A stretch of 64,000 bases of DNA from Acidimicrobiales bacterium (GCA_963422655.1 OY730440.1:2425442-2489441); one strand, 5' to 3'. Shown: positions 2,376 to 20,183, counted from the first letter of the stretch. Program-made: numbers and translations. Notes: generated from the letters alone by a model not told the origin.

Positions 2376-2406
2376 GGTTCAGTGATTCCACTCATGGTTC
2401 AGCGAT
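2367..2406. repeat. Tandem duplication, 2 x 20 bp (19/20 identical): tccactcatggttcagtgat / tccactcatggttcagcgat
   Basis: Read directly. Each copy carries tcat (ATGA on the minus strand). Copy 1 supplies the LLM start at 2375 and copy 2 supplies the creatininase stop at 2392. Confidence 0.9.
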
Positions 2407-3881: not shown

Positions 3882-6404
3882 ATGATGGATAATGTGCTGG
3901 TTCTAGGGCTGGTAGTTGCGTTGTGGTTCGGGTCGGCGGAGGCTTCGCCTTTTGAGCTCGCTGGTGCCAGTGCGGCTCAGGCCAAGGCGAGCGATGTTGT
4001 CGGGTCGGCTGGTGATGTGGTTGATCCTTCGTCGGGTGGTTCGGCGAATTTTGTGGTGGAGTCCTATGCGCGGGATTATTCGGTGTCTTATGGGGAGGCT
4101 TTGCGGCGTTTGGGTCGGATTACGGTGTTGCAGGCTGTGATGGCGTCGATTCGTGAGGTTGAGGGTTCGCGGTTGGCTGGTTGGGGTATTGAGCATGGCA
4201 GCGACTTCGGGGCGTGGGTTTGGTTGGCTGGTGATGAACCGCCGAGCGATGAGGCGGTTCGGATCGCGGCTTCGCATGTTGATGTGGAGGTTCGTGGTGG
4301 CGCGAGTTACTCGCTTGAGGAGCTGAGAGCGGCGGAGCGGCGCCTTGTTACTGGTTCGTTGGAGGACCTGGTTGGGTCGGGTACTTCTTTGGAAGTGGCG
4401 TTCACTGAGATCGATTTTGATGCTAACGGTATCGAGGCTGGCGTCGATCTTGTGGATTTACCTGGCCGGGTTGGACGGAGTACTGATGCGGTGGGCGAGG
4501 AGGTATCTGATTCGGAGTTCGAGACGGAGTTGGATCGGTTATCGGCGGTGTTGGAGGACGTTGTTGGTGTGCCCGTGGCAGTCTCGGATGCTCGGGGATT
4601 TGGGCCTACTGCAACAATCTTGGGCGGAGGTCGGTTGACGGCTTGCACTTCGGGGTTCACGGCTAAGTTGGTGGGTGGCGATTACGGGATTCTGACGGCA
4701 GGTCATTGTTCTAACTCGGATAAGTACCGCCGCAATTATCGGCCTTTCGGTGTTGATGTCAGCCTTCCGTACGTGAAGGGTTGGTCTGGGAAGAGAGCGG
4801 ATGCCCAGTTTCATCGGGTCCCATCGGGGAACTCCAACTTGTTGTCGGATGACTACAAGTGCGGTAAGGAGGCTGAAGAAGTTTGTGATGTGACTGGCGT
4901 GATGGATCGATCCGACATGTTAGGTGATTATGTATGTCATACTGGCAGGGTCAGTGGAGTCTCGTGTGGTAAGATCACGAACAACAGAGCTCGGCATTTT
5001 CGATGCTATACCGCACAGCGGTCAAAATCAGTGGCTAAAAGAGTGGCTTGCGATCCGGTCTTCGTTACTTGGTCGGGGCCGACCCTCAAGGTCTGTGGCG
5101 GTGACAGCGGCTCTCCAGTATACAACTATGAAGGTGTCGCGTATGGGATGCTCAGGGGTTCGAATAGTAACCCGTATGCTTCGAGGTGTTCTACAGGTGG
5201 TAAACTGAAGCTCAATTTTTCTGTGATCCGCGAGATAGAGGCTTTCCTGGGGGTAGAAGTACTGACGGAGGATCCTTCTCCGCCGAGTGCTCCTCAGGGA
5301 GTTGAGGTGGATGTTGCAGAGATGGTGAGGTTGTCCTGGGCTCCGCCACCTGAAGGAGCCGTTGAGTATCGTGTGTTCCGCCGCAACAAATCGATCGGTG
5401 AGTCCTTTGCCCTGGCTGGCAGCACTTCCACTGCAAGTTATGATCATCCAGTTTCAGAGTTGCTTCCAGGGATGGATTACGAGTATCGGGCCAAGGCAAT
5501 CAACAATCTGGATATGCTAGGACCGAATAGCGAAGTAGCGACCGTATCGATACCGGGAGCAGCTCACCTTAGAGCACAGCCTGGCACCGACGGGGTATCG
5601 GTTTCATGGTCGAAGCCGTCCGGTGATGTTGGTGGCTATGAGGTGTACCGACGGGCCGCGGTTGCAGGCCAGGCATACCACAAGATAGGCGACGTGACCT
5701 CGGCTTCGTTTGTCGACCCGTTGTCGGGGTTGACGCCCGGCGTGGAGTACTACTACCGGGTGAAAGCGGTCAGCAGTGCTGGTGTGGTTGGCGGTTGGGG
5801 ATCGGGTTCGAATTATGCACCGGCGGTTGTTCCAGCCGCTGGGGGTTTGAAAGTCACTGTGTATTCTAATAGTGTCACAGTCTCATGGGAGAAACCGGTT
5901 GGAGATGTGGCTAGCTTTAAAGTGTACCGTCGTGTAGCTAAGCCGGGTGAAGCCTATAGGGAGATCGGAGAGCGTAAGGTCCCGTATTTTTGGGAACCGT
6001 TATCAGGGTTGACGCCCGGCGTTGAATACTACTACCGGATAAGAGCGGTCAGCAATACTGGTGTAGTTGGCGGTTGGGGATCGGGTTCGAATTATGCGCC
6101 GGTGGTTGTTCCGGCTGCTGGGGGTTTGAAAGTCACTGTGTATTCTAATGGTTTCACAGTTTCATGGGAGAAACCGGTTGGAGATGTGGCTAGCTTTAAG
6201 GTGTACCGTCGTGTAGCTAAGCCGGGTGAAGCCTATAGGGAGATCGGAGAGCGTAAGGTTCCGTATTTTTGGGACCCGTTGTCGGGGTTGACGCCCGGCG
6301 TGGAGTATTACTACCGAGTGAAAGCGGTTGGTAGTAGTGGTGTGGTTGGCGGTTGGGGTCCCGGACCTAACTATGCACGCGCAGTTGTTCCCAAAGCTGG
6401 TTAA
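3882..6404 (+). CDS. Secreted S1-family (alpha-lytic/streptogrisin-type) serine protease with N-terminal pro-region and four C-terminal fibronectin type III domains
   Basis: Signal-like N-terminus VLVLGLVVALWFGSAEA. His motif LTAGHC, Asp in KRADAQF, Ser motif CGGDSGSPV (about nt 4614-5260). Four ~93-aa FN3 units have YRV/YYYRVKAV signatures. Codon usage is visibly T/G-ending, unlike the neighbours. Confidence 0.9.
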   Translation: MMDNVLVLGLVVALWFGSAEASPFELAGASAAQAKASDVVGSAGDVVDPSSGGSANFVVESYARDYSVSYGEALRRLGRITVLQAVMASIREVEGSRLAGWGIEHGSDFGAWVWLAGDEPPSDEAVRIAASHVDVEVRGGASYSLEELRAAERRLVTGSLEDLVGSGTSLEVAFTEIDFDANGIEAGVDLVDLPGRVGRSTDAVGEEVSDSEFETELDRLSAVLEDVVGVPVAVSDARGFGPTATILGGGRLTACTSGFTAKLVGGDYGILTAGHCSNSDKYRRNYRPFGVDVSLPYVKGWSGKRADAQFHRVPSGNSNLLSDDYKCGKEAEEVCDVTGVMDRSDMLGDYVCHTGRVSGVSCGKITNNRARHFRCYTAQRSKSVAKRVACDPVFVTWSGPTLKVCGGDSGSPVYNYEGVAYGMLRGSNSNPYASRCSTGGKLKLNFSVIREIEAFLGVEVLTEDPSPPSAPQGVEVDVAEMVRLSWAPPPEGAVEYRVFRRNKSIGESFALAGSTSTASYDHPVSELLPGMDYEYRAKAINNLDMLGPNSEVATVSIPGAAHLRAQPGTDGVSVSWSKPSGDVGGYEVYRRAAVAGQAYHKIGDVTSASFVDPLSGLTPGVEYYYRVKAVSSAGVVGGWGSGSNYAPAVVPAAGGLKVTVYSNSVTVSWEKPVGDVASFKVYRRVAKPGEAYREIGERKVPYFWEPLSGLTPGVEYYYRIRAVSNTGVVGGWGSGSNYAPVVVPAAGGLKVTVYSNGFTVSWEKPVGDVASFKVYRRVAKPGEAYREIGERKVPYFWDPLSGLTPGVEYYYRVKAVGSSGVVGGWGPGPNYARAVVPKAG
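5838..6395 (+). repeat. Two near-identical 279-bp tandem units encoding FN3 domains 3 and 4
   Basis: Unit starts at 5838 and 6117 (gctgggggtttgaaagtcactgtg). A more diverged copy lies upstream at about 5560-5837. Confidence 0.9.
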
Positions 6405-6528: not shown

Positions 6529-6999
6529 CTACCCGTGGGCGGCGACGACGGCGATCTCCAGCTTCCAAGCCGGCTGAGCCAAAGCTGACACCACCACCAA
6601 GGTGGACGCGGCCCGGTGTCCGGCCAGAAACCGATCCCGTTCGGCTATCACAATTCGAAGATTTGCCGGGCTGTCGTACTCGGCGACCACATATGTGGTC
6701 GCCGACACGATGTCGCCCGATCCCATGGCGGCTTCGGCGAGCATGGCTGAGATGTTGGCCCACACCGTTGCGGCTTGGGCGTCGATGGTGTCGGGCACTG
6801 AACCGTCGGGACGGGTGGGCACCACCCCGGAGGTGTACAGCCACCTCGACGGGCGCTCGACCAGCATCGCATGGGCGTAGCGAGCCGCCGGCGGAGCGAT
6901 AGTGGCAGGGTCGATCCGGGACAGGGTGATGAGACGATCGTAGACTCCGAGCTCTATGACGCAACGGATGGCCCTGTACTTCCAGGACAAGCACGACAT
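6529..6999 (-). CDS. RidA/YjgF/Endoribonuclease L-PSP family protein (start uncertain)
   Basis: [41 protein letters not shown] matches the RidA fold pattern. The only in-frame starts upstream of the conserved beta-1 are ATG 6999, TTG 6990 and CTG 6924. Confidence 0.7.
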
Positions 7000-7981
7000 C
7001 GGCTACGAGATCGAGATGGCCAAGTACGCCGAGGAGAAAGGTTTCAGCGAGATCTGGCAGGCCGACACCCGGCTGGCCCGGGACTGTGTGGTGATGATGA
7101 GCGCGCTGCTCGCCGAAACCAGCCGGATCCGCATAGGCAGCGGCGTACTGCCCGTCTACACCCGCAACCCGGCCGTGATCGCAGCCACTTGGAGCACCAT
7201 GTGGGAGCTGGGCGGGCTCACCCCCACCGGTGAGAGCCGGGTGATGCTCGGTCTCGGAGCTTGGTGGGAGCCCATCGCCAGCCGGGTCGGGGCGCCACGG
7301 CGCCGGCCGCTGGTGGCCATGCGCGAGAACGTGGAAGCCATAAGGGCACTGTTCACCATGCAGGAGGTCAGCTACGAGGGCGAGTTCGTCCACCTCGACC
7401 GGGTCCGGCTCGATGTTGCCTACGGTGACAGCACACCTAGGGCCATCCCTGTCTACATCGGCGCCACCGGCCCAAAGATGCTGGAGCTGACCGGGGAGAT
7501 AGCCGACGGCGTTGTGCTCAACTACGTGGTACCGACCGCATATATAAGAAACGCCGTGGCTCAGGTTTCCGCCGGTGCGGTACGCGCCGGGAGGGACCCG
7601 GCCAGTATCGACCGGCCCGAGCTGCTGGTGTGCTCGCTGTGCGATGACGACCCTGACGAGGCCATAGCCACGGGCAAGTCGCTGGTGGCCTACTACCTAG
7701 GCACCGAACCTCACCTCATGGAGGCCTCCGGTGCCGATCCCGATCTCGTCGAACGGGTGAAACAAGTGGTGGGCTGGCCCGCGACCGAAGCCGACTACCG
7801 CAGAGCCGCCCCCCTCATCAGCGACGGTTTCGTCAGAGACCTCATGGCGGTGGGAACCTCGGCGCAGTGCCGAGACAAAGTGGCCGAGTACATAGACGTC
7901 GGCGTCACCTGCCCCATCCTGTACCCGATCATGGACGACATGAAGCCGGTGATCGACGCCTTCGCGGCCTGGACTCCATGA
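6956..7981 (+). CDS. LLM-class flavin/F420-dependent oxidoreductase
   Basis: 341 aa. [38 protein letters not shown]. Alternative start ATG 6968. Confidence 0.85.
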
Positions 7982-8083: not shown

Positions 8084-9502
8084 ATGGCAGCGGGCTACAC
8101 GGGTCGTGGTGTGGGCTCGGTGACGAGAACCCACCGGCCCTCGCTGTTGATCCACGGAGGGGTTGTCGTCACGGTTGACGATCATGGCGCCGTGCATGAC
8201 CCGGGCTGGGTGTACGTGAACGGCAACCGAATCGTCGAGGTCGGTTCCGGGACGCCTCCCCAAGCCCGCTGTCGCCAGGCCGGGGCCGTCATCGACGCGG
8301 CCGGGGCCGCGGTCATGCCGGGCATGGTCAACGCTCATACTCACCTGTTCCAGGGTTTCTTTCGGGGTCTGGCCGACGACAAGACTCTGCTGGACTGGCT
8401 GCGGGACTGTATCTGGCCGGCTGCGACTCATCTAGACGGCACCACCATCTACTTGGCTGCTCTGGCTGGGTTGATCGAAAATCTCCGGAGCGGGGCTACC
8501 ACGGTTATCGATCATCAATACGTCCATGTCGACGCCAACCTCGACGACGCGGTGTGCCGGGCCGCCGACGAGCTCGGTGTGCGGTTCGTGCTGGCTCACG
8601 GGTGGGCCGACCGCAACTACCACCCGCCACTGATGGAAACCGCCGATATCGCCATCGAGCGGGCCCGCACCGTCCGTGACCGCTGGGACGGCCACCACGA
8701 CGACCGTATGCGGGTGGAGCTGGCCCCGCTCATCGCGTGGGGCTGTTCGGACGAGGCCATGCGAGCCACGGTGGCCGAGGCCCGGAGCTGGGGTCGGGGC
8801 ACGCACATCCATTGCGCCGAGACAGCGGTGGAGGTGGAGATGAGCTTGAACGAGCGGGGGATGCGCCACGTCGAATGGCTGGAGTCGTTGGGGGTGCTCG
8901 GCCCCGACGTTCAGCTCGCTCACAGCGTGTGGCTCGACGACGGCGAGCTCGATCTCATCGCCTCGTCGGGTTCGGTGGTGGTTCATTGCCCGGTGTCGAA
9001 CATGTACCTGGCCTCGGGGGTGGCCCCCGTCGTCGAGATGAAACGGCGGGGCATCACCGTGGCGCTGGCCAGCGACGGGCCGGGGAGCAACAACCGCCAA
9101 GACATGTTCGAGGTTCTCAAGGCCACGGCGCTGCTCCAGAAAGTACATCACCTCGATGCGGTGGTGCTTCAACCCGAGGAGGTATTGCATATGGCCTGCC
9201 GGGGCGGGGCGGCTGCTTTCGGTCTGCGGGATGCCTTCGGTGCCATTGCCGCAGGACAACGAGCCGACCTGGTAGTGGTGGACCTGCGGTCGCCGTTCGT
9301 GATGCCGGTTCACCGGGTGCCCAGTGCCCTGGTGTACAACGCCACCCCCCGTGACGTCCTCGACGTGATCGTCGATGGTCGGGTTCTCATCCGCGACCGT
9401 GAGCTGGTCGGAATCGACGAGCAGGCCGTGCTGGCCCGCGCTGGCGTCGCGGCCCGGGCTCTGTTCGAACGAGCCGGAATTGCTACCCGCCTCCGTAGTT
9501 GA
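8084..9502 (+). CDS. Amidohydrolase-family deaminase/chlorohydrolase (MTA/SAH deaminase or guanine deaminase-like)
   Basis: MPGMVNAHTHLFQ metal-binding HxH motif, later HCAE and SDGPGSNN motifs. Alternative start GTG 8120. Confidence 0.85.
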   Translation: MAAGYTGRGVGSVTRTHRPSLLIHGGVVVTVDDHGAVHDPGWVYVNGNRIVEVGSGTPPQARCRQAGAVIDAAGAAVMPGMVNAHTHLFQGFFRGLADDKTLLDWLRDCIWPAATHLDGTTIYLAALAGLIENLRSGATTVIDHQYVHVDANLDDAVCRAADELGVRFVLAHGWADRNYHPPLMETADIAIERARTVRDRWDGHHDDRMRVELAPLIAWGCSDEAMRATVAEARSWGRGTHIHCAETAVEVEMSLNERGMRHVEWLESLGVLGPDVQLAHSVWLDDGELDLIASSGSVVVHCPVSNMYLASGVAPVVEMKRRGITVALASDGPGSNNRQDMFEVLKATALLQKVHHLDAVVLQPEEVLHMACRGGAAAFGLRDAFGAIAAGQRADLVVVDLRSPFVMPVHRVPSALVYNATPRDVLDVIVDGRVLIRDRELVGIDEQAVLARAGVAARALFERAGIATRLRS

Positions 9503-9556
9503 CTTGCAAGAGATAGTCGACTTGCAAGATGTAGCTAACTTGCAAGATGTACTTGG
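9496..9556. repeat. Tandem repeat, about 3.4 x 18 bp (tagYYRacttgcaagaKR)
   Basis: Read directly. Unit 1 contains the amidohydrolase stop codon (9500-9502). Confidence 0.9.
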
Positions 9557-9578
9557 GGCTGGGCCTGCTAGCTGTGAG

Positions 9579-9650
9579 TAACCGGTTCACTGTGACAACC
9601 GACTAACCGTTACAAACCGGCTACCTGTTACTAACCGGCTAACTGTGACA
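9579..9650. repeat. Degenerate tandem array, 4 units of 17-19 bp (taaccggYt.acYgtKaca)
   Basis: Read directly: taaccggttcactgtgaca / accgactaaccgttaca / aaccggctacctgttac / taaccggctaactgtgaca. Confidence 0.75.
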
Positions 9651-9861
9651 AACGGGATCGTTGGTGAACCAGCAGGCCAGCACCGATGGCACCGGCTTGG
9701 TTACCGAGCCGGGTTTGCAGGAGAGCGGGCGGCATCCGGCGGTGCCGGGTGAGAACGTTGAAATGATGGATGAGCGCCTCGATGTTGCCGAGAGGATGTA
9801 TGTCGATATGGCCCACGCCCACCGCGAGCACCTGCCGGATCGACTCGTCCCGCAGTGAAGC
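9631..9861 (-). pseudogene. Possible C-terminal remnant of a ROK-family kinase/regulator
   Basis: The stop-to-stop frame encodes ...ESIRQVLAVGVGHIDIHPLGNIEALIHHF...LLQTRLGNQAGAIGAGLLV. The LGNxAGxIGA tail is typical of ROK C-termini. There is no N-terminal ATP-binding part and a stop lies at 9862-9864. Confidence 0.35.
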
Positions 9862-9898: not shown

Positions 9899-10645
9899 AT
9901 GCCTCGAATGGTGGCCTACCATCGGCCCACAACTATCGAAGACGCCATCGGCTTGTTGAGTGAACCCGACCGGGTGGTCTTGGCCGGTGGCACCATGCTG
10001 AACGCTGACCGGGAGCCCTCCGATCTCGAAGCCGTGGATATCCAGGCCCTGAGGCTGGACCGGATCGAAGCCGACGATACCGGCCGGGTCCGGTTGGGGG
10101 CCATGGTCACCCTCGACGAGATATCCCGGTCCGAATCGATACCGGCCCGGATGCGCCATGTGGCTCGGGCCGAGGCGCCCTCGACGCTGCGAACCCTGGC
10201 CACCGTGGGCGGTCTGGTGGCCCGACGCCAAGCCGACAGCGTGTTGCTGGCCGCCCTGCTGGCTCACCGGGGCCGGGTCGCTCTGGCCGGCGGGGGCGGT
10301 GCCGACGACTTGGAACTGGGGGAGTTGCTGGCCGCAGAAATGCCGGCCGGAGCGCTGATCACGGCGGTGACCATCGACCCGGACGGTGCTGTCGCCACCG
10401 CCGGTACCGGCCGGACCCCGGCCGATGTACCCATCGTGGCCGCCTACGGGCGTAGGGTCGGCGGTGCCGTTACCGTAACCCTCACCGGCGTGGCTGGTGT
10501 CCCGGTCAGGGCCGACGAGTCGGACCCGGTGGCGGGGCTGGCCCCCGACGGCGACTTCCGGGGCTCGTCCGAATACCGACTGATGTTGGCCGGTGTCCTC
10601 ACCCGACGAGTGGTGGCGGATTTGGCCAGGGAAGGGGTGGGCTGA
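9899..10645 (+). CDS. FAD-binding subunit of a xanthine dehydrogenase/CO dehydrogenase-family molybdenum hydroxylase (CoxM/XdhB-like)
   Basis: LAGGTMLN FAD motif, LATVGG, and C-terminal FRGSSEYRLMLAGVLTRR (CO_deh_flav_C-like). Confidence 0.85.
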   Translation: MPRMVAYHRPTTIEDAIGLLSEPDRVVLAGGTMLNADREPSDLEAVDIQALRLDRIEADDTGRVRLGAMVTLDEISRSESIPARMRHVARAEAPSTLRTLATVGGLVARRQADSVLLAALLAHRGRVALAGGGGADDLELGELLAAEMPAGALITAVTIDPDGAVATAGTGRTPADVPIVAAYGRRVGGAVTVTLTGVAGVPVRADESDPVAGLAPDGDFRGSSEYRLMLAGVLTRRVVADLAREGVG

Positions 10646-13596
10646 TGGAAGCAGGCAGAGCCAGTGAGATGACAGAGGTCACCTTCGATCTCAACGGTGC
10701 GGCCACTACCGTCACGGTGGCACCTCACGAGTCGTTGCGGGCGGTGCTGCGGCGCTTGGGCATGTTCTCGGTCCGTTACGGCTCCGACAGCGGCGAGACC
10801 GGCGCCGCCGCGGTGCTCTTCGACGGGCGGCTGGTCAGCGCCGATGTCGTCGGTGCGGCCCAGGCCGGCGGCCATGCCATCACCACCTTGGAGGCCCTCA
10901 ACGTCTCGCCCGAACTGCATCCCATCCAAGCTGCCTTCGTGGCGGTAGGGGCCTTCCAGTCGGGCTACTCGGCCGGGGCAATGATCCTGGGGACCATGGC
11001 GTTGCTGAAAGCCGACCCCGATCCGTCCGAGGCCGAGATCCGCGACATGCTCTCGGGCATCCTCGACCGCGAAACCGCCTACACCAAGCCGGTCGAAGCA
11101 GTGAAACGAGCCGCAGCCGTGCTGAGGGGCGATAAGCCCGACCCCTTCGGCCCGCTGGTCCTGCCGCCGATGACCGACGGGCTCAACCCGGCAGTCGTTG
11201 ATGCCGACGACCCGGCTGTGCCGGCTTCGAGCTCGGTGCCTCGCTTGGTCCCGTCCCGAGACGTGCCCGACATGGCCGTGGTCGGCAAACCGGAGGTGAA
11301 GGTCGACTCGGTTCGCCTGGCCAAGGGAAACCCGGCCTTCACCGACGACATCGAGCCCCGGGGGATGCTCTACGCCAAGGTGCTGCGCAGCCCCCACGCC
11401 CATGCCCGCATCGTCGGCATCGACGACTCGAAGGCCTTGGCCCTGCCCGGGGTGCGAGCGGTGCGCCACCACCGGAACACTCCTCGGGTGAAGTACGCCT
11501 CGGGCGGCCAGAGCTGGCCCAACCCCCACCCCCACGACCAGGTGAGCTTCGACGACAAGGTCCGTCATGTCGGAGACCGGGTGGCGGCGGTGGCCGCCGA
11601 CACCATCGAGATCGCCGAGGAAGCCATCCGGCTCATCGACGTGACCTATGAAGTGCTCCCGGCCGTCTTCGACGAACGGGATGCCATGAAGCCCGGCGCG
11701 CCGGTGGTCCACGACGAGGACGACACCCATCACATCGCCGACCGGGACCGTAATCTGGTCCATCACATCACGGCCCGACGAGGCGACCTCGAGGGTGCTT
11801 TCGCCATCGCCCCCCATGTCTTCGAGCAGACCTTCCGGGTCCATCAGGTTCAGCAGTGCCCGATCGAGCCCCACATATCCATGGCCTGGCTCGACTCCGA
11901 CGAGCGCATGGTGGTCCGCACCGCTACCCAGGTGCCCTTCCACACCCGGCGAATGCTGGCCCCCCTCATCGGCATGGACATCAAGGACGTCCGGGTCATC
12001 AAGCCCCGCATCGGCGGCGGCTTCGGGGCCAAGCAGGAGATGCTCATAGAGGACATCGCCGCCCACTTGGCCATCGCCACTCGTCGCCCGGTTCGGCTCG
12101 AGCTCGACCGGGCCGAGGAGTTCTTCGCCAGCCGCACCCGCCATCCCCAGACGATCACTTTCCGGTCCGCGGTCGACCGCGACGGCCGGCTCATGGCTCA
12201 GGACATGTACGTGCTGGGCAACACCGGCCCTTACGGGACCCACGGCTTCACGGTGCAGATCGTCTCGGGGCTGCGGGGTCTGTCCTCCTACAACGCTTCG
12301 GCCAAGCGCTTCACCTGCGATGTCGTCTACACCAACATCCCGGTTCCGGGCGCCTACCGGGGCTACGGCGGCCCCCAGGGCGAGTTCGCCCTCGAAGCTC
12401 ACATGGAGGACATCGCCCGGGCTCTCGATATGGACGTCCTCGACTTCAAGCGCCGTAACTGGGTGAAGATGGGCGACGAGCAGGACATCGCCCCCCACCT
12501 CGGTGAGCGGGCTCCGGCTACCGAGGAGCTCGACGACTACCCCAAGATCATGTCGTCGGGGATCGAGGAGTGCGTGGCCCAAGGCGGTCGCGAGATCGGC
12601 TGGCACCGGCGCCATGACCCGGCCTGGAAGCAGCCGGCCGACCGGCCTCACATTCGCCGGGGCATCGGCTTCGCCTTCTGCATGCACGGTACCGCCATCC
12701 CCTTCCTGGACATGGGAGGGTGCTCCATCAAGCTCAACGACGACGGCTCGTTCAACATGCTCATCGGCGCCACCGACCTGGGCACCGGGGCCGACACCGT
12801 CATCGGGCAGATCGCGGCCGAGGTGTTGGGGGTGCCGCTGGACGACATCAAAGTGTACTCGAGCGATACCGACGTAACCCCCTTCGACACCGGGGCCTAT
12901 GCCTCGTCGACCACCTACATATCCGGCACCGCCGCGTTGCGAGCGGCCGAGGTGGTGCGCAAGCGGCTCAAGGAGCGGGCCGCCATGCTGCTCGAGGTCG
13001 ACGAGCCCTGCACCATCGAGCTCCGGGACCGGCGGGCCTACGCCGCCGACGGTCGTTCGGTGAGCCTGGAAGAGATCGCCCTGGACTCGCTGCACATGCA
13101 GGAGCACGAGCAGATCATGGGCACGGCTTCGCACGTCTCGCCCGACTGCCCGCCCGCGTTCGCGGCCCAGTTCGCCGAGATCGAGGTGGATGTCGAAACC
13201 GGTCAGGTCACGGTGACCAAGCTGGTGATGGCCGTCGACTGCGGGGTGGCCATCAACCCGGTCACTGCCAGCGGCCAAGTGGAGGGCGGCATGATCCAAG
13301 CCCTCGGCTACGGCCACTGCGAGGAGATAGTTCTCGACGGCGCCGGCCGGATGATCAACCCGTCGTTCGGCCCCTACAAGATCTACCGGGCCGACGAGGT
13401 ACCCGAGACGGTCGTGTTCTTGGTGCAGACCATGGAGGACAGCGGCCCGTTCGGGGCCAAGGCCGTGGCCGAGATCCCCAAGGACGGGGTGGCTCCGGCG
13501 GTGCGTAACGCCATCCTCGACGCCACCGGAGTGGCAATCAACGATCTGCCCTTCACCCCGGAACGGGTGTGGAGAGCCCTTCGGTCCCACGCTTGA
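10645..13596 (+). CDS. Molybdopterin-binding large subunit of an XDH/aldehyde-oxidase-family hydroxylase, fused to a cysteine-less [2Fe-2S]-like N-terminal domain
   Basis: 983 aa. The N-terminal ~165 aa are collinear with Fer2/Fer2_2 small subunits. The Moco part has IGGGFGAKQE, GYGGPQG and FGAKAVAEIP motifs. The start ATG overlaps the FAD-subunit stop (TGATG). Confidence 0.9.
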   Translation: MEAGRASEMTEVTFDLNGAATTVTVAPHESLRAVLRRLGMFSVRYGSDSGETGAAAVLFDGRLVSADVVGAAQAGGHAITTLEALNVSPELHPIQAAFVAVGAFQSGYSAGAMILGTMALLKADPDPSEAEIRDMLSGILDRETAYTKPVEAVKRAAAVLRGDKPDPFGPLVLPPMTDGLNPAVVDADDPAVPASSSVPRLVPSRDVPDMAVVGKPEVKVDSVRLAKGNPAFTDDIEPRGMLYAKVLRSPHAHARIVGIDDSKALALPGVRAVRHHRNTPRVKYASGGQSWPNPHPHDQVSFDDKVRHVGDRVAAVAADTIEIAEEAIRLIDVTYEVLPAVFDERDAMKPGAPVVHDEDDTHHIADRDRNLVHHITARRGDLEGAFAIAPHVFEQTFRVHQVQQCPIEPHISMAWLDSDERMVVRTATQVPFHTRRMLAPLIGMDIKDVRVIKPRIGGGFGAKQEMLIEDIAAHLAIATRRPVRLELDRAEEFFASRTRHPQTITFRSAVDRDGRLMAQDMYVLGNTGPYGTHGFTVQIVSGLRGLSSYNASAKRFTCDVVYTNIPVPGAYRGYGGPQGEFALEAHMEDIARALDMDVLDFKRRNWVKMGDEQDIAPHLGERAPATEELDDYPKIMSSGIEECVAQGGREIGWHRRHDPAWKQPADRPHIRRGIGFAFCMHGTAIPFLDMGGCSIKLNDDGSFNMLIGATDLGTGADTVIGQIAAEVLGVPLDDIKVYSSDTDVTPFDTGAYASSTTYISGTAALRAAEVVRKRLKERAAMLLEVDEPCTIELRDRRAYAADGRSVSLEEIALDSLHMQEHEQIMGTASHVSPDCPPAFAAQFAEIEVDVETGQVTVTKLVMAVDCGVAINPVTASGQVEGGMIQALGYGHCEEIVLDGAGRMINPSFGPYKIYRADEVPETVVFLVQTMEDSGPFGAKAVAEIPKDGVAPAVRNAILDATGVAINDLPFTPERVWRALRSHA

Positions 13597-13599
13597 GCC

Positions 13600-14922
13600 G
13601 TGGCTCCGGGGACGATCGTCACCGCCGACTGGGTCATCGCCGCGGCAACCGACGATCCCCGGCCCGATCACGCCGTTCGGGTGGTCGGCGACCGCATCGA
13701 CGAGCTCGGCCCGGCGGCTGAGCTGCGGGCCCGCCATCCCGGTGACGCCTGCATCGATGGGTCCGGTCAGGTGCTCATGCCCGGGTTCGTCAACGCTCAT
13801 GTTCACCTCTACGGGGTGCTGGCCCACGGCATCCCCGCCGATGATGCCCCATCCGGGTTCTGGAGCTTTCTCGACGACTACTGGTGGCCCAAGATCGAGA
13901 ACGCCCTCGATCACGACATGATCGCCGCTGCCGCCGACTGGGTGACGGTCGAGCTGCTGAGGTCGGGCACCACCAGCTTCTTCGACATCTTGGAAGCCCC
14001 CAACGCCTTGCCTGAGGCCCTGCTGGTCGAAAAGGAGGTGATCGACCGGCGGGGGCCGAGGGCGATTCTGAGCTTCGAGGCCACCGAACGCATGGGGGCC
14101 ACCAATGGCCGAGCCGGTCTGGCCGAGAACGTGCGGCTGATCGAAGCGGCCCGGTCCGACCGGTCGAGCCTCGTGTCGGGGGCGATGTGCTACCACACCA
14201 CGTTCACTTGCTCGGAGCCGCTGATCCGTCAGGCCTTCGAGCTGGCCGAGCATCACGACGTGTTCTGCCACGCCCATGTCAATGAGGGCACACACGAGCC
14301 GGAGTGGTGCCTCGAGCACCACGGCCTGCGAACGCTCGAGTTCTACCGGCGGCTGGGGGTGGCCTCCCCCCGGTTCCAGGCCAGCCAGTGCGTGCAGGTC
14401 TCGGAACGAGAGATCGGTATAATCGCCGATTCCGGCATCCGAGTGTCGCACATGCCGCTGGCCAACTGCGAGGTCGGGGGCGGGATCGCGCCCATCCCCG
14501 AGCTGCTCGAACGGGGCGTGACGCTGGGCTTGGGGTCCGACGGCTATGTCAACGACATGTTCGCGGTCATGCGGGGGGCGTTCTTGCTGCACAGGGCCCG
14601 AACGCTGGATCCGGGGGTGCTGCCGGCCGATGTGGTGTTGCACCTCGCTACGGAAGGGTCGGCTCGAGTCCTCGGCCTCACCGGCGTCGGCCGGCTCGAA
14701 CCGGGCTTTTGCGCCGACCTCCAACTGGTCGAGGCCCGTTTCCCCACTCCGGTTCAGGGCCACAACCTGGCCGAACAGCTCGTGCAATGGGGTGATCATT
14801 GCTGGGTGCGCGACGTGATGGTGGCCGGCCGGTGGCTGGTGTGCGGTGGTGAGGTACTCGACGCCGACTCGGACCGGCTGCGGGCCCGCTGTCGTGAGCA
14901 AGCGGCCCGGCTGTGGGCGTGA
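13600..14922 (+). CDS. SsnA-like amidohydrolase (putative aminohydrolase)
   Basis: PGFVNAHVHLYG HxH motif, later HAHVNEG and GSDGYVNDMF. Confidence 0.85.
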   Translation: MAPGTIVTADWVIAAATDDPRPDHAVRVVGDRIDELGPAAELRARHPGDACIDGSGQVLMPGFVNAHVHLYGVLAHGIPADDAPSGFWSFLDDYWWPKIENALDHDMIAAAADWVTVELLRSGTTSFFDILEAPNALPEALLVEKEVIDRRGPRAILSFEATERMGATNGRAGLAENVRLIEAARSDRSSLVSGAMCYHTTFTCSEPLIRQAFELAEHHDVFCHAHVNEGTHEPEWCLEHHGLRTLEFYRRLGVASPRFQASQCVQVSEREIGIIADSGIRVSHMPLANCEVGGGIAPIPELLERGVTLGLGSDGYVNDMFAVMRGAFLLHRARTLDPGVLPADVVLHLATEGSARVLGLTGVGRLEPGFCADLQLVEARFPTPVQGHNLAEQLVQWGDHCWVRDVMVAGRWLVCGGEVLDADSDRLRARCREQAARLWA

Positions 14923-15728
14923 GTCCAGCCGTCGCGACCGGAGACACAAGGGCCAGTGGGGCCCCGGGCCCAGGCCTGATCGGGGAGTTGGCCGGCGCGG
15001 TGGCGGCCGGGGTGGCCGTGGCGGCCGCCACCGTCGTGGACACCTCGCGGTCGGTGCCCCGCCGGCCCGGCGCCAAGATGCTGGTGTTTCGTGACGGCCG
15101 CACCCGCGGGACCGTGGGCGGAGGCGAGATGGAAGCTCGAGTCGTGATCGAGGCCGTCGAGTCCCTGGGCGACGGCCGTCCCCGTATGCTCGACTACCGG
15201 CTGGTCCACCCCGACCAGGGCGATCCGGGAGTGTGCGGGGGCGACGTCTCGATATTCGTGGAGCCTCACATGCCTCGACCGACTCTTGTAGTGGTGGGAT
15301 ACGGCCACGTGGGCCGGGCCGTTGCCCATCTGGCCCACTGGCTCGACTACCTGGTAGTGGTCAGCGACGACCGCGACGGGCTCGAAGCCGACGCCACCTC
15401 GGTCCACGAGCTCTTCACCGGCCCCATCACCGATCTGATAGCGGGGCGGCCCTTCGATGCCGACACCTCGGTGGTGCTGGTCACCCGCAACGTCGGCCTC
15501 GACGTGGCCGCGCTGTCGGCGCTGCTGGCCACCGGGGCCGGCTATATCGGAGTGATGGGAAGCGCCCGGCGGTGGAACACGGCCCGAGCCCAACTGGAGG
15601 TCCGGGGGGTGGACCCGGCCGACCTCGACCGGGTGAAAGCGCCGATCGGCATCGAGGTCGGAGCCGAGACACCCTCTGAGATCGCTGTGAGCATCATGGC
15701 CGAGGTGATCGCCCATCGCCGCCTCTGA
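14913..15728 (+). CDS. XdhC/CoxI-family molybdenum hydroxylase maturation protein
   Basis: ATVVDTSRSVPRRPGAKMLV..GTVGGGEME N-domain, Rossmann-like VVVGYGHVGRA, and C-terminal PIGIEVGAETPSEIAVSI. An alternative GTG 14919 overlaps the upstream stop. Confidence 0.85.
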   Translation: MGVSPAVATGDTRASGAPGPGLIGELAGAVAAGVAVAAATVVDTSRSVPRRPGAKMLVFRDGRTRGTVGGGEMEARVVIEAVESLGDGRPRMLDYRLVHPDQGDPGVCGGDVSIFVEPHMPRPTLVVVGYGHVGRAVAHLAHWLDYLVVVSDDRDGLEADATSVHELFTGPITDLIAGRPFDADTSVVLVTRNVGLDVAALSALLATGAGYIGVMGSARRWNTARAQLEVRGVDPADLDRVKAPIGIEVGAETPSEIAVSIMAEVIAHRRL

Positions 15729-15738
15729 GCCACTCTGC

Positions 15739-16518
15739 GTGCTGCGGGGCGGTGGTGACCTCGCCACCGGGGTGGCCTGGCGACTGACCCGGGCCGGCTG
15801 GCCCGTGGTCGTGCTCGAGCTGCCCCGACCCCTGACGGTGCGCCGGACCGTGGCTCTGTCCACCGCCGTCACCGAGGGGGAAGTGGTGGTGCAGGGTCTG
15901 AGAGGGATTCGGGTCGACTCGCCCAGCGAGGCCGTGGCCGTGGCCGCTACCGGCGCTGTGGCCGTGCTCGTCTCCGGTGAGCGGGTGCCCGTCGGTGCCG
16001 AAGTGGTGGTGGACGCCCGGCTGGCCAAACGCAACCTCGACACCACTATCGACGACGCCGATCTGGTGGTGGGGTTGGGTCCGGGCTTCGTGGCCGGAAC
16101 CGACTGCCACGGGGTGGTCGAGACCATGCGGGGCCACAGTCTGGGTCGGGTCCTGTGGGCCGGCTCGGCTGCGGCCGACACCGGCACGCCCGGGCTGGTG
16201 GGCGGCCGCGGCGCCGACCGAGTGCTGAGGGCTCCCGCCGACGGAATAGCGGCCTGGGACGCGGCCATCGGCGACATCGTCACCTGCGGCGAGGGCTTGG
16301 GGACCGTGGCCGAGGTGGCGGTGAAGGCACCCTTCGACGGGGTCCTGCGAGGCGCTATCGCCACCGGGACCGAAGTTCGGGCCGGGCTGAAGATCGGTGA
16401 CGTGGATGCTCGCTGCGATCCAGCCGCTTGCTACCAGATCTCCGACAAGGCGCTGGCCGTGGGCGGGGGAGTGCTGGAAGCGGTGCTGGCCTGGCGCTCG
16501 GGCCGGGCCGGCTTCTGA
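15739..16518 (+). CDS. YqeB/EF2563-family protein (accessory protein of selenium-dependent molybdenum hydroxylase systems, TIGR03309-like)
   Basis: The N-terminus VLRGGGDLATGVAWRL..VVVLELPRPLTVRRTVALSTAV matches my recollection of this family. It lies directly downstream of xdhC. Confidence 0.65.
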   Translation: MLRGGGDLATGVAWRLTRAGWPVVVLELPRPLTVRRTVALSTAVTEGEVVVQGLRGIRVDSPSEAVAVAATGAVAVLVSGERVPVGAEVVVDARLAKRNLDTTIDDADLVVGLGPGFVAGTDCHGVVETMRGHSLGRVLWAGSAAADTGTPGLVGGRGADRVLRAPADGIAAWDAAIGDIVTCGEGLGTVAEVAVKAPFDGVLRGAIATGTEVRAGLKIGDVDARCDPAACYQISDKALAVGGGVLEAVLAWRSGRAGF

Positions 16519-16562
16519 AGGCGAGCTCGGGCCGGGCCGGTCACCTGAGTAGGGTCCGGTCC

Positions 16563-17546
16563 GTGGTCCGGCTCGCGTTCAACCTCATCCCGACCGAACC
16601 CATAGAGCGGATGGTCGGCTTGGCCCGTTTGGCCGAGCAGCACCGATACCAGCGGTGCTGGGTCTACGACGAGGGTCTCGCCACCCGGGACGTGTACGTG
16701 ACCCTGGCTGCCATCGCCTCGGCCACGTCTACTGTCGAGGTGGGTCCGGGTATAACCAATCCCTACACCCGTCATCCCGGATCAACCGCCGCCGCCATAG
16801 CTTCCCTGGACGAGCTGTCGGGGGGCAGGGCCTTCCTGGGCATCGGGGCCGGGGGCAGCCTCACGCTGGATCCCCTGGGAATAGAGCGGAACCGTCCGCT
16901 TTCTGCCGTGGCCGAGACCATCGACGCCTGTCGGCGCCTTTTCGAAGGGGAAACCGTCGATAGCCATGGCCGGCACGTGCAACTCCGCCGAGCGAGGCTG
17001 GCCTGGCGGTCGGGCCGGTCCGGCACCGAGATCTGGTTGGCCGGCCGGGGTCCGAAGATGCTGAAGCTCGGTGGCTCCGTCTGTGACGGGGTCATGCTCG
17101 ATTTCTTGTACAAGCCCGATCTCGCCGGGGTGGTGGGTGGTATCCGGGCCGCGGGCCGGGCCGCGGCCCGCTCACCGAGGATCGGCTACTCGACCATGAT
17201 CGTTACCGATGAGAGGGTCATGGCCGCTACCAAGCCTCACATGACCTACCGGCTGGTCGATTCGCCTCCGCAAGTGCGAGCCGCCATCGGGTTGACCGAC
17301 GATGCTGCCGGGCAGATCCGCGCCGCTATGGGTTCGGGCCTGGAAGCGGCAGCTGAACTGGTGCGAGACGAATGGGTGCATCCATTCGTCCTGTCCGGCA
17401 CCCCCCGCGAGTGCGCGTCCGAGTTGGCCTCACTGGTGGCGCGCCACGAGATCGACGAATTCGTGGTACCGGTCCTCGACGACGCCGGAGCCGAGGAGCT
17501 GCTGGCCGTCGGGGCCGAGGTGCTCGCCCGAGCGGCTCGCCTGTAG
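16563..17546 (+). CDS. LLM-class F420-dependent oxidoreductase
   Basis: VGPGITNPYTRHP, GIGAGGS, GRGPKML. The ORF-track start 16428 overlaps the upstream gene, so GTG 16563 (VVRLAFNLIP) is preferred. Confidence 0.8.
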   Translation: MVRLAFNLIPTEPIERMVGLARLAEQHRYQRCWVYDEGLATRDVYVTLAAIASATSTVEVGPGITNPYTRHPGSTAAAIASLDELSGGRAFLGIGAGGSLTLDPLGIERNRPLSAVAETIDACRRLFEGETVDSHGRHVQLRRARLAWRSGRSGTEIWLAGRGPKMLKLGGSVCDGVMLDFLYKPDLAGVVGGIRAAGRAAARSPRIGYSTMIVTDERVMAATKPHMTYRLVDSPPQVRAAIGLTDDAAGQIRAAMGSGLEAAAELVRDEWVHPFVLSGTPRECASELASLVARHEIDEFVVPVLDDAGAEELLAVGAEVLARAARL

Positions 17547-17672
17547 CTCGGATCTTGTTTCGGGTCGGCGCCCCACGCCGTCTCAGCCTCGGGGGCCCGG
17601 TCTCAGAGCTGCTATCCCCGGTTCGGGGTTGGCGGCGCCCCATGCCGTCCCTAAGGTTGGCCAGGCCACTTC

Positions 17673-17707
17673 CCCGTGGATTCTCACCTTGCCCGTGGAT
17701 TCTCACC
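17673..17707. repeat. Direct duplication of cccgtggattctcacc (2 copies, period 19)
   Basis: Read directly. It ends about 10 bp upstream of the proposed Tad operon first gene. Confidence 0.85.
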
Positions 17708-17716
17708 GGATGGGAG

Positions 17717-18376
17717 TTGGCCTTGATTATTTGGTGCTGGTCGGTCAAAGGTGGAGTGGGTACCTCGGTGGTGGCGGCAGCCATCGCCCTGCGGATGGCC
17801 CGCAACGGGCGTGACGTAACGCTGGTCGATCTGGACGGCGACCAGCCCGAGCTGCTGGGCTTGGTCCGACCGGTGGCACCGTCCGAGCCGGGCATCAGCG
17901 ATTGGGTCGCTGCCGGCGAGGGGGTACCGGCCGATGCCATCGGCCGGTTGCTCGAAGAGGTGGTCCACCGGCTGCGACTGCTCCGGACCGGGTCGGTCCC
18001 GCTGGCCGGAGCCGACCGCGATCGGTTACGGCTGGCCTTGGACGTATTGGCCGGGTCCGGCCCGGTGGTGGTCGATGCCGGTCTCGACCTCGACTGCATC
18101 CGGTCCGACCTCGGCGAACCCCACCGGTCGGTGTGCGTGTTGCGACCCTGCTTCTTGGCCATCAGCCGGGTGCAGCGGGCGGCCGGCTCCATCGATCACG
18201 TGATCTTGGTGACCGAGCCGGGTCGAGCCCTGCGCAGCAGCGACATCGCGGCTGCTGTCGGGGCCACCCGGATCGACCGCATTGCCTGGGATCCCAGAGT
18301 GGCCCGAGCCGTCGATGCCGGCACCATGGCCGGGGTCCTACCCATGCCGCTGCGCCGTTTCGATCTGCCGGTATGA
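17717..18376 (+). CDS. CpaE/TadZ-like ParA/MinD-family ATPase (pilus assembly)
   Basis: Deviant Walker A SVKGGVGTS close to the N-terminus. Start is TTG 17717 or 17723; the long upstream extension in the ORF track is Arg/Pro-rich and unlikely to be coding. Confidence 0.7.
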   Translation: MALIIWCWSVKGGVGTSVVAAAIALRMARNGRDVTLVDLDGDQPELLGLVRPVAPSEPGISDWVAAGEGVPADAIGRLLEEVVHRLRLLRTGSVPLAGADRDRLRLALDVLAGSGPVVVDAGLDLDCIRSDLGEPHRSVCVLRPCFLAISRVQRAAGSIDHVILVTEPGRALRSSDIAAAVGATRIDRIAWDPRVARAVDAGTMAGVLPMPLRRFDLPV

Positions 18377-19494
18377 AGGCGTCGTCGGGACTGGTCGACG
18401 CCGTGCACCGCAAGGTGCTCGACGCCGATCCCCGGACCCCCCTGACCTCAGCCGAGGTGACGGGCATCGTCCGGACCCTCGACCCGCTGGCCCGACCCGA
18501 GGCAGTCGACGACGTGGTGGCTCGGGTGGTGGCCCGAGTGGAGGGGCTGGGTCCTATCGAGCCCCTACTGGCCGACCCCACCGTGAGCGAGGTGATGATC
18601 AACGGGCCGGGTCCGGTATGGATCGAGCGGGACGGCCTGACCTGCAAGAGCGGCGTGTCTGTGGATCGGACCGCGGTCGACCTCTTGATCGAACGGATCG
18701 TGGGGCCCCTGGGCCGACGAGTCGATCAGCGAACGCCTTACGTCGACGGGCGGTTGCTCGACGGGTCCCGGGTCCACGTGGTGGTACCCCCGATAGCGGT
18801 CGACGGCCCCTACGTCACCATCCGGCGGTTCGTGGTGGCCGACGTGGCTTTGGAGATGTTCGCCGAGAAGGTTGTGGTGACGCTGCTCGACGAGTTGGTC
18901 GAGCGGGGCGCCAACGTGATCGTGAGCGGAGGAACCGGCGCCGGCAAGACGACCCTCCTCAATGCTCTGGCCGGTCGAATGAGCCGCGATCTGCGGATCG
19001 TCACCATCGAGGACGCGGCGGAGCTCCGATTCGGTCATCCCCATGTGGTTCGCCTCGAAGCCCGACCCGAATCCCGCGAGGGCGGAGGTGAGGTGACCAT
19101 CCGCGACCTGATCCGCAACGCCCTGCGGATGCGACCCGACCGGCTGGTGGTGGGTGAGGTGAGAGGACCCGAGGCCCTCGATCTCCTCCATGCCCTCAAC
19201 ACCGGTCATGCCGGTTGCCTGTCCACCATTCATGCCAACAGCCCCGTTGACGGGCTGCGCCGGCTGGCCACGCTGGCTACGGCCGCAGCCGAACGCCTCC
19301 GATTGGAAGCGGTCCGGGACCATGTGCAGGCCGCGATCGACGTGGTCGTCCACGTCGAACGCGGGGCACGAGGTGTGCGTCGTATCGCTGAGATCGCCGA
19401 AGTGATCTCGGGCGACCGGGTCCGGCGGCTGGCCGACAGCGCCGGCGTGACCGGCGGACCCCGCCGACCGGCCCGGGTCGCAGGGTCGGCGTGA
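18373..19494 (+). CDS. CpaF/TadA-family type II/IV secretion ATPase
   Basis: VSEVMINGP, Walker [32 protein letters not shown]. The ATG overlaps the upstream stop (ATGA). Confidence 0.92.
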
Positions 19495-20183
19495 TGGTGG
19501 TCATAGCGGCCGGTCTGGTCTTTGTCGCTGTTGCTTGGTTCCGGCCCCCGCCTCGGGGCCGTTCGGCTCGACCGGCCGGGCCGGTAAGGGCCCTCACCGA
19601 GGCCTGGGCTCGTATCCGGACGCAGTTGCGTCCCGACGACCACGCCATCGTGGTGGCAGAGATGCTGGAGTTGGTCGCCCGGGCGTTGCGGGGTGGTGCA
19701 TCGCTGCCCGTGGCGCTCAAGACGGTCTCGGCCGAACTGCCCGAAGCCGATCTGGCTCCGGTGCTCCGGCGGATCGCCGGCGGTTTGAGCGTGACCGAAG
19801 CCCTCGACCGTTGGGCCCTCGACGCTATCGACAGCGGAGCCCGCACCGCCCGCCAGACCGCGGCGGCTCTGCTCATGCTCGGGCATGGATCCGGTGCCGC
19901 CATGGCTGCCAGCCTCGACCGGGCCGCCGCTTCCATCCATCAGCGCCGAGCCTGGCGCGACGAGATCCGAGCGCTCACCGCCCAGACCCGGGCTTCGGGT
20001 CTGCTGGTTGCGCTGGCCCCGGCCGCTTTCGGTCTGGTCGTCGCCCTCGTGGACAGTGAGGCTCTGGCGGTGCTGGTGACGACCCCCATCGGGTGGTTCT
20101 CCCTTTCGGTTGGATTGGGGTTGGAAACCCTCGGGGTGTGGTGGATGACCCGGTTGACTCGGGGAGTGTCGGCGTGGGAGTGA
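19491..20183 (+). CDS. TadB-like type II secretion system F-family membrane protein
   Basis: 230 aa with hydrophobic N- and C-terminal segments. Position after tadA; ATGA overlap. Confidence 0.7.
   Translation: MMVVIAAGLVFVAVAWFRPPPRGRSARPAGPVRALTEAWARIRTQLRPDDHAIVVAEMLELVARALRGGASLPVALKTVSAELPEADLAPVLRRIAGGLSVTEALDRWALDAIDSGARTARQTAAALLMLGHGSGAAMAASLDRAAASIHQRRAWRDEIRALTAQTRASGLLVALAPAAFGLVVALVDSEALAVLVTTPIGWFSLSVGLGLETLGVWWMTRLTRGVSAWE

Follow-up and report, generated by a model that had tools for sequence, protein, structure and literature searches.

A cysteine-free iron–sulfur-like module in XdhD/YgfN-type molybdenum hydroxylases

A gene of an Acidimicrobiales bacterium encodes an XdhD/YgfN-type molybdenum hydroxylase whose N-terminal module is homologous to the iron–sulfur (Fe-S) small subunit of xanthine and CO dehydrogenases and has none of the eight cysteines that would hold its two [2Fe-2S] clusters. 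The gene occupies positions 10645..13596 (+) of a 64-kb stretch of DNA (GCA_963422655.1 OY730440.1:2425442-2489441), here called the window, and searches of the source genome cover this window only. In the textbook picture of the xanthine oxidase family, an obligatory wire connects molybdenum (Mo), FeS I, FeS II and flavin adenine dinucleotide (FAD). Judging by the sequence, that canonical wire cannot exist in this polypeptide because all eight cluster ligands are gone, as an earlier note on this DNA had claimed. We favor, with a probability of about 0.6, the reading that the module is a structural scaffold, empty of cofactor, on which the FAD subunit docks in an XdhD/YgfN-type enzyme, likely one performing a urate-type reduction. 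The XdhD family is already functionally characterized, and the window gene is a divergent member of it. What appears to be new is an Fe-S-free, FAD-partnered organization as a family-level trait, which is seemingly undiscussed in the literature searched and poses a puzzle of mechanism.

A small-subunit module without cluster ligands

The 983-residue protein consists of a degenerate Fe-S module, a linker and the domains for the molybdenum cofactor (Moco). The module spans residues 1-165 (10645..11139, +), and profile alignments divide it into a Fer2-like half at about residues 10-85 and a Fer2_2-like half at residues 81-154. Alignments to Pfam, NCBIfam and PDB chains agree that these 165 residues are homologous end to end to the small subunit, which the earlier note had called collinear with them. 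The whole Fer2_2 profile is matched by residues 81-154 (E 5.9e-16, 58.8 bits, cutoff 30.3), and the NCBIfam small-subunit models glyceraldDH_gamma, XdhC, pucE and PaoA align end to end with residues 7-160 (E 1e-20 to 3e-32). The solved small subunits 4ZOH_C, 8UEM_C and 5Y6Q_A align with residues 7-161 (E 1e-22 to 7e-25). Of the two Pfam profiles that the earlier note had proposed as a check on homology, Fer2_2 is thus recovered, while Fer2 (PF00111) has no match in the protein that reaches E 0.01.

The ligand columns were set by aligning the window protein with XdhC, which is the Fe-S subunit in XdhABC of E. coli. The eight positions read S47, T52, A55, D67, S106, S109, D141 and E143, with 0/8 cysteines, and the same residues (S/T/A/D/S/S/D/E) face each ligand cysteine in the alignments to the three solved subunits. 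The change is seen in three loops. The Fer2-type cluster loop, expected as G-C-x-x-G-x-C-G-A-C-T-V, reads GSDSGETGAAAV at residues 46-57 (10780..10815, +); Q-C-G-[FY]-C-T-P-G is replaced by QSGYSAGA at residues 105-112 (10957..10980, +); and L-S-G-N-L-C-R-C-T-G-Y is replaced by LSGILDRETAY at residues 136-146 (11050..11082, +). The substitution of every ligand and the placement of the motifs had been described in the earlier note, which gave 10774-10824 for the first loop, and both descriptions hold. Its statement that the 165 residues lack cysteine is also correct and can be widened: the protein has nine cysteines, the earliest is C405, and none falls in residues 1-404.

The Pro/Asp-rich linker at residues 166-210 (11140..11274, +) is poorly conserved, the lowest of all segments. 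The Moco-binding catalytic part follows at residues 211-983 (11275..13593, +), with Ald_Xan_dh_C (96.6 bits), MoCoBD_1 (249 bits) and MoCoBD_2 (247.4 bits) all above their Pfam cutoffs of 31.3, 27 and 27 bits. It retains GGGFGAKQE at residue 457 and GAKAVAE at residues 937-943, as the earlier note had it, together with GE621; the GGGFG loop and the C-terminal catalytic-glutamate motif GAKAVAE are invariant across the alignment of relatives. The top whole-protein NCBIfam model is TIGR03313 (XdhD/YgfN), at 668.6 bits and under its cutoff of 1101.9. No XdhD structure is among the PDB entries searched, and the closest solved relative of the Moco part is 1RM6_A, the 4-hydroxybenzoyl-CoA reductase alpha subunit (E 5e-101).

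Selection and predicted fold

The alignments show the module to be under strong purifying selection, with its replacement residues fixed. In a set of 117 orthologs at 78-100% identity to the window protein, S47, T52, S106 and S109 are invariant; A55 is A, G or S, and D67 is E in one sequence. The run D141, R142, E143 and T144 is conserved in at least 98% of the set. Invariant columns make up 42% of the N-domain, 59% of the Moco part and 23% of the linker, and the Fer2-like half is less conserved than the Moco part. A sequencing or frameshift artifact was considered and is ruled out by the same substitutions in more than 100 orthologs.

Set against the Moco part, the N-domain has a divergence ratio of 1.57 in the cysteine-free clade versus 1.45 in a sister clade from Chloroflexota in which all eight cysteines are invariant (107/107 sequences). 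The corresponding ratio for the linker is 2.67. An AlphaFold2 model of the full protein has a predicted local distance difference test score (pLDDT) of 80.5 and a predicted template-modeling score of 0.84; pLDDT in the N-domain is mostly 87-95 and dips only at the three ex-cluster loops. In Foldseek the model matches best to 1DGJ and 1SIJ, aldehyde oxidoreductases in which the FeS and Moco parts are fused, at a template-modeling score of 0.85 over the whole chain. The structure prediction suggested in the earlier note thus returns the canonical fold, and the fold and its packing on the Moco domains are predicted to persist. The divergence ratio close to that of a cluster-binding sister and this predicted fold argue together that the module is not a decaying domain.

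The FAD subunit

Directly upstream lies the gene for a YgfM-like FAD-binding subunit of 248 residues (9899..10645, +), assigned by Pfam FAD_binding_5 (E 8e-18) and, as best NCBIfam model, TIGR03312 (YgfM; 74.7 bits, under the cutoff of 241.5). It is 31% identical to E. coli YgfM and has both the AGGT and the TVGG motifs, as YgfM does. The earlier note had described a separate, translationally coupled subunit with AGGT; the motif is present, and within TGATG (10643-10647) the stop codon of the FAD subunit gene and the start of xdhD overlap.

This partnership is widespread. An FAD-subunit gene lies upstream in 59 of 80 related loci, and among these 59 subunits AGGT or GGGT is present in 56 and T[IVL]GG in 55. 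In two close relatives from Acidimicrobiia the FAD subunit is naturally fused to a cysteine-free XdhD (P0077, 1264 residues, at L006 10001-13795; P0084, 1273 residues). Because such natural fusions exist, a stable FAD–XdhD complex is supported.

Distribution and repeated loss

All of the best 120 closest database proteins, which come from metagenome-assembled genomes (MAGs) of Acidimicrobiia at 78-100% identity, retain the substituted motifs. A broader survey took one genome per species and examined the best 80 loci, at 57-85% identity to the window protein; the closest of them is Candidatus Aldehydirespirator (Acidimicrobiia, 85%). The ligand set is absent in 79 of the 80, and only L087 retains eight cysteines. 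Together with the 117 orthologs, this answers the earlier note's question of whether the cysteine-less state is clade-wide: it is widespread, with L087 as an exception. The taxa are mostly Actinomycetota and Chloroflexota (Acidimicrobiia, Streptosporangiaceae, Thermoleophilia and many Chloroflexota), with single MAGs labeled Gemmatimonadales, Gammaproteobacteria and Planctomycetaceae.

The commonest set among the 79 loci is STADSSDE, the one found in the window protein. STADSSCE has one relic cysteine, at the seventh ligand position, and was found in Promineifilaceae, Anaerolineae and Chloroflexia; the Chloroflexota proteins with a single relic cysteine there, mostly as STADSSCE, are those of L054, L062-L064, L067, L070, L071, L073-L075, L078 and L079. 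Two Anaerolineae MAGs and one Aggregatilineales MAG have DTDQSNDE or DSDQSNDE. When the diversity of fused relatives is sampled as 50%-identity representatives, most have all eight cysteines, and the exceptions are the window lineage, the E. coli lineage (D-A/T-D-x-S-N-x-x) and P0124. The last is a half-loss form, DGDG followed by CCCC, in which only the ligands of the Fer2-type cluster are gone.

Neighbor-joining (NJ) trees of the Moco part, with 200 bootstrap replicates, group the window clade with the eight-cysteine Chloroflexota clade in 99.5% of replicates. With a larger taxon set, eight-cysteine lineages (P0122-like proteins and L087) stand beside separate cysteine-free lineages. One ancestral loss in common with E. 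coli XdhD was also considered, and the bootstrapped trees lend it no support. Because eight-cysteine clades separate the cysteine-free lineages and regaining eight cysteines is implausible, the NJ trees suggest a minimum of two losses of the clusters, and perhaps three or four.

Comparison with known systems

The earlier note knew of no described cysteine-less member of the family, and this point does not stand: the same cysteine-free domain is found in a protein known for many years, XdhD (YgfN, b2881) of E. coli K-12, as it is in 79 of the 80 loci. The E. coli protein is 37% identical to the window protein over its full length. Its N-terminal 165 residues lack every ligand cysteine, the three loops reading SVRNSDDGFGFAGSDAIIF, VQSGYNDPAA and LSGLFSRDAGW, and its first cysteine is C190. 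RefSeq names the product of E. coli xdhD (L001 16317-19187) "molybdopterin-binding subunit and Fe-S binding subunit" despite 0/8 ligand cysteines, an annotation probably carried over by homology.

The two systems share a fused N-module and Moco part, the lack of all eight ligand cysteines, a YgfM-type FAD gene immediately upstream with an overlap, an adjacent SsnA or SsnA-like gene, and YqeB/XdhC maturation genes. In E. coli the order is ssnA-ygfM-xdhD, with yqeB, yqeC and mocA nearby. Glutamate E606 of the E. coli enzyme is conserved and aligns with E621 of the window protein. The replacement residues differ, DADSSNSD in E. coli versus STADSSDE in the window protein. The place of YgfK is taken in the window by F420-type LLM oxidoreductases, and HyuA, YgeW, YgeX and YgeY are not in the window.

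E. coli XdhD has been purified with co-purifying YgfM and converts urate to 2,8-dioxopurine with NADH (Li et al. 2025, PMC12507026). YgfK then dearomatizes this product and SsnA opens the ring; in some Chloroflexota SsnA clusters an F420-dependent luciferase-family enzyme is found instead of YgfK (PMC12507026). The NADH activity was reported without kinetics (PMC12507026), so it cannot discriminate between electron routes. A commentary cites an AlphaFold 3 XdhD–YgfM heterodimer with an interface predicted template-modeling score of 0.94 (PMC12990295). The clostridial counterpart XdhAC is described as having Fe-S domains and no FAD, making no use of NAD(P)H and being SelD dependent, with its donor unknown (bioRxiv 10.1101/2025.04.24.650524). 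By published description, XdhAC (DOPDH) of Clostridium sporogenes runs the reaction proposed for the window enzyme, depends on selenium and works in an SsnA-containing pathway, and it differs in its Fe-S-binding domains, its lack of an FAD subunit and its lack of NAD(P)H activity. The missing ligands of XdhD are not mentioned in PMC12507026, in bioRxiv 10.1101/2025.04.24.650524, in the supplements, in the commentary PMC12990295 or in two older general papers on XdhD; an earlier mention is possible (Xi et al. 2000, UniProt, EcoCyc).

The nearest sister of the window clade is a Chloroflexota clade annotated as "putative selenate reductase Mo subunit" (P0122-like), which shares 53-56% identity, the fused architecture and the GE621 motif. 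Unlike the window clade, it keeps all eight cysteines in every one of its 107 members. Its upstream flavoprotein-like subunit (213-218 residues; L003 9348-10004, L004 9370-10011) lacks the AGGT-containing N-terminal half, and the two sister loci inspected, L003 and L004, have no SsnA or LLM genes nearby. Radical-SAM, AIRS-family (possibly SelD-like) and Fer4 genes are neighbors in L003.

Among enzymes with solved structures, the Desulfovibrio aldehyde oxidoreductase MOP (1SIJ, 1DGJ) has the same fused FeS-module/Moco layout and is the best structural match; in contrast to the window protein it holds a pair of [2Fe-2S] clusters and lacks an FAD subunit, and sequence identity is 25%. In sequence, the solved protein nearest to the Moco part is the alpha subunit of 4-hydroxybenzoyl-CoA reductase (1RM6), an enzyme that differs in having a separate Fe-S subunit with all clusters. 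That reductase runs in the reductive, dehydroxylating direction, and its flavoprotein holds an extra [4Fe-4S] cluster.

The search for an Fe-S partner

The window encodes no Fe-S protein. The E. coli XdhC and YgfK queries have no tblastn match in the 64 kb, and a six-frame scan of the same 64 kb for ferredoxin-type motifs returned nothing real; matches to a Rieske-like pattern fall only in SsnA or in off-frame open reading frames (ORFs) with low third-position GC content. In the loci of close relatives, no Fe-S partner is present within 10 kb.

Fe-S matches in more distant loci belong to a second, complete fused paralog of the xanthine dehydrogenase (XDH) family with eight cysteines. This FeS-Moco paralog is 25-32% identical to the window protein and shares its cluster with a cysteine-free XdhD–FAD pair, usually beside SsnA. 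It was found in MAGs of Chloroflexota and Streptosporangiaceae (L040 5878-8577; L044 2961-5504; L050 3806-6358; L058 3655-6207; L060 3801-6131; L068 2481-5048).

Function and electron supply

In the reading favored here, the ligand-free module would hold the YgfM-like flavoprotein on the Moco subunit and would also give the active site its shape on the pterin side. Dehydroxylation of urate, or of a close purine, to 2,8-dioxopurine is the most likely reaction by analogy, given the synteny with E. coli ssnA-ygfM-xdhD and the conserved counterpart of glutamate E606. The enzyme would then sit in a reductive purine-degradation cluster in which F420-dependent LLM reductases substitute for YgfK. Electrons would most likely arrive either by slow, cluster-free transfer from the flavin or from a donor acting at or near the Mo-pterin. 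Of the three options raised in the earlier note, which also included changed chemistry, a purely structural role is favored by the constraint on the module, similar to that on a cluster-binding domain, and by the retained fold; a partner acting in trans is disfavored, as the window has none and neither do the loci of close relatives within 10 kb.

Several observations weigh against the scaffold reading with urate as substrate. In the geometry of bovine XDH the gap from flavin to pterin without clusters is ~25 Å, and very slow electron transfer is therefore predicted; a dead wire is awkward alongside a conserved FAD subunit and a reported NADH activity. The urate function is transferred by analogy because the window protein and E. 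coli XdhD never group in trees (0/200 NJ bootstraps), and the window proteins score under the TIGR03313, TIGR03312 and SsnA cutoffs. HyuA, YgeW, YgeX, YgeY and YgfK of the E. coli pathway have no tblastn match in the window. Because the eight-cysteine paralog often adjoins SsnA, urate reduction may not fall to the cysteine-free enzyme in all genomes, and that enzyme may act on another substrate.

Electrons could instead come from an Fe-S protein in trans, a ferredoxin or a YgfS-, YgfT- or AegA-like protein that feeds the Mo-pterin and leaves the FAD subunit and the dead domain off the physiological path. This would fit the position of ygfS and ygfT a few genes from xdhD in the E. coli island, the presence of YgfK in some related loci and the Fe-S-containing clostridial XdhAC, which has no FAD, does not use NAD(P)H and has an unknown donor (bioRxiv 10.1101/2025.04.24.650524). 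We consider it unlikely, given that neither the 64-kb window nor the 10 kb around the gene in close relatives has a ferredoxin-type or CoxS-type ORF, that the Fe-S matches of distant loci are accounted for by a second complete XDH-family enzyme, and that the dead domain is predicted to fill the docking position beside the pterin. If the chemistry itself had changed, with both half-reactions at Mo (ping-pong hydroxyl transfer between purines, or a small reductant) and the flavin used only for occasional redox priming, an internal wire would be unneeded or even harmful. The repeated independent loss of the wire in the subfamily, the partial-loss forms P0124 and STADSSCE, and the clusters of several genomes that encode both a cysteine-free enzyme and an Fe-S-competent paralog would then make sense. 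The FAD motifs are nevertheless conserved across the clade, an E. coli delta-xdhA mutant leaves xanthine unconsumed, and XdhD–YgfM makes 2,8-dioxopurine from urate with NADH (PMC12507026), so that we rate changed chemistry as quite improbable.

The emptied pockets themselves might hold a redox cofactor through ligands other than cysteine, be it an oxygen-ligated cluster, a mononuclear metal or an organic cofactor. The replacement residues are indeed polar or acidic and fixed (S, T, D/E, S, S, D, E), but one position per lineage is Ala or Gly, the different set of the E. coli lineage (D-A-D-S-S-N-S-D) means that no ligand set is shared, and we know of no all-oxygen-ligated [2Fe-2S] site; this makes a hidden cofactor of that kind very improbable. 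It is harder still to credit that the N-terminal region is a decaying relic, without a role and heading for deletion. The lower conservation of the Fer2-like half relative to the Moco part and the pLDDT dips at the ex-cluster loops could be taken that way. They are set against 42% invariant columns versus 23% in the linker, a divergence ratio of 1.57 close to the 1.45 of the cluster-binding sister clade, and retention of the full-length region in the 79 loci lacking the ligand set, across several phyla, and in E. coli.

Beyond the scaffold reading, a wider claim is put forward tentatively. It is possible that a widespread subfamily, E. coli XdhD included, repeatedly gave up its two [2Fe-2S] clusters but still has a working FAD subunit and catalytic Moco site, and that electrons reach Mo by a route undescribed for the family. 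They might cross the long distance without clusters, use a cofactor hidden in the emptied pockets, or come from a donor that acts on the Mo-pterin itself. For the window enzyme, F420H2-linked chemistry is a further candidate.

Gene neighborhood

The genes around the FAD–XdhD pair form a putative purine-degradation cluster. Upstream are a divergent RidA-family (Ribonuc_L-PSP) protein (6529..6999, -), which is also a neighbor in relatives; one of two LLM-class F420-dependent oxidoreductases (6956..7981, +; Pfam and NCBIfam); and an amidohydrolase of the nucleobase deaminase or TRZ-ATZ type (8084..9502, +; Pfam Amidohydro_1), for which NCBIfam gives 5'-deoxyadenosine deaminase and 8-oxoguanine deaminase as top models, each under its cutoff. 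Within the 397-nucleotide gap upstream of the FAD gene, two tandem arrays with an 18-nucleotide period occupy 9496-9672, one made of three copies of TAGTYGACTTGCAAGAKR and the other of about four to five copies of a CCGGCTAACTGTGACAAA-like unit. These arrays may be operator sites.

Directly downstream of xdhD is an SsnA-like amidohydrolase of 440 residues (13600..14922, +). The SsnA models NF005540 and TIGR03314 rank top for it at 243 bits (cutoff 444) and 235 bits, both under cutoff, and a tblastn search of the window with E. coli SsnA gives E 1.5e-31. It is followed by an XdhC-family Moco maturation factor (14913..15728, +; Pfam XdhC_CoxI and XdhC_C), which matches the N-terminal half of E. 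coli YqeB, and by YqeB itself (15739..16518, +), at 293 bits to TIGR03309 (cutoff 220). E. coli YqeB (541 residues) thus corresponds to two separate window genes, the XdhC-like gene and yqeB. YqeB is a marker of selenium-dependent molybdenum hydroxylases, and its presence as a neighbor suggests that the large subunit is selenium dependent. The second LLM-class gene (16428..17546, +) encodes a Mer-like F420-dependent oxidoreductase (Pfam Bac_luciferase at residues 57-337; NF002619/TIGR03555), and its true start is probably downstream of 16428. Relatives carry YqeC between YqeB and the LLM gene (L006 19121-19528; L007 15889-16644; counterpart region in the window, 15739-17546), and YqeC has no tblastn match in the window.

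Two Mer-like F420 LLM genes flank the operon in the absence of YgfK, which fits the SsnA-cluster variant described in PMC12507026. By analogy, the 2,8-dioxopurine type of cluster may extend to Acidimicrobiia, with F420 chemistry replacing YgfK. In place of HyuA, YgeW/UacY, YgeY and YgeX, relatives have a creatininase, an M15 peptidase and a dihydroorotase (DHOase)-like amidohydrolase. The window also has a gene for a creatininase-family amidohydrolase and one more LLM gene, at 2392-3195 (-) and 1452-2375 (-), and genes of both kinds recur near the cluster in relatives (L006 21290-22108; L007 19888-20745) with the DHOase-like amidohydrolase and M15 peptidase. This creatininase, LLM, DHOase-like and M15 set may take over ring and ureido cleavage from HyuA and YgeY.

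Two further features lie on either side of the cluster. Directly downstream, at 17372-20983, is a gene set like that of a Tad or type II secretion system pilus, with a ParA/CpaE-like ATPase, two T2SSF-domain proteins and a 530-residue ORF that, from sequence alone, resembles a secretion ATPase. Upstream, where GC content is low (0.556, GC skew 0.27), is an 840-residue ORF (3882-6404) that resembles, by eye, a secreted trypsin-like protease with three near-identical repeats of ~95 residues after it.

Implications

A large clade, which includes a model-organism enzyme now placed in the gut urate-degradation pathway, is predicted to be unable to bind either of the two clusters, and its module and flavoprotein are still under selection. 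For the cysteine-free proteins, a database name like "Fe-S binding subunit" (RefSeq xdhD) would then be mistaken. A mechanistic explanation is needed for the reported NADH-dependent urate reduction by XdhD–YgfM. The recurrent loss of the ligands is a natural experiment on the roles that Fe-S modules have beyond electron transfer.

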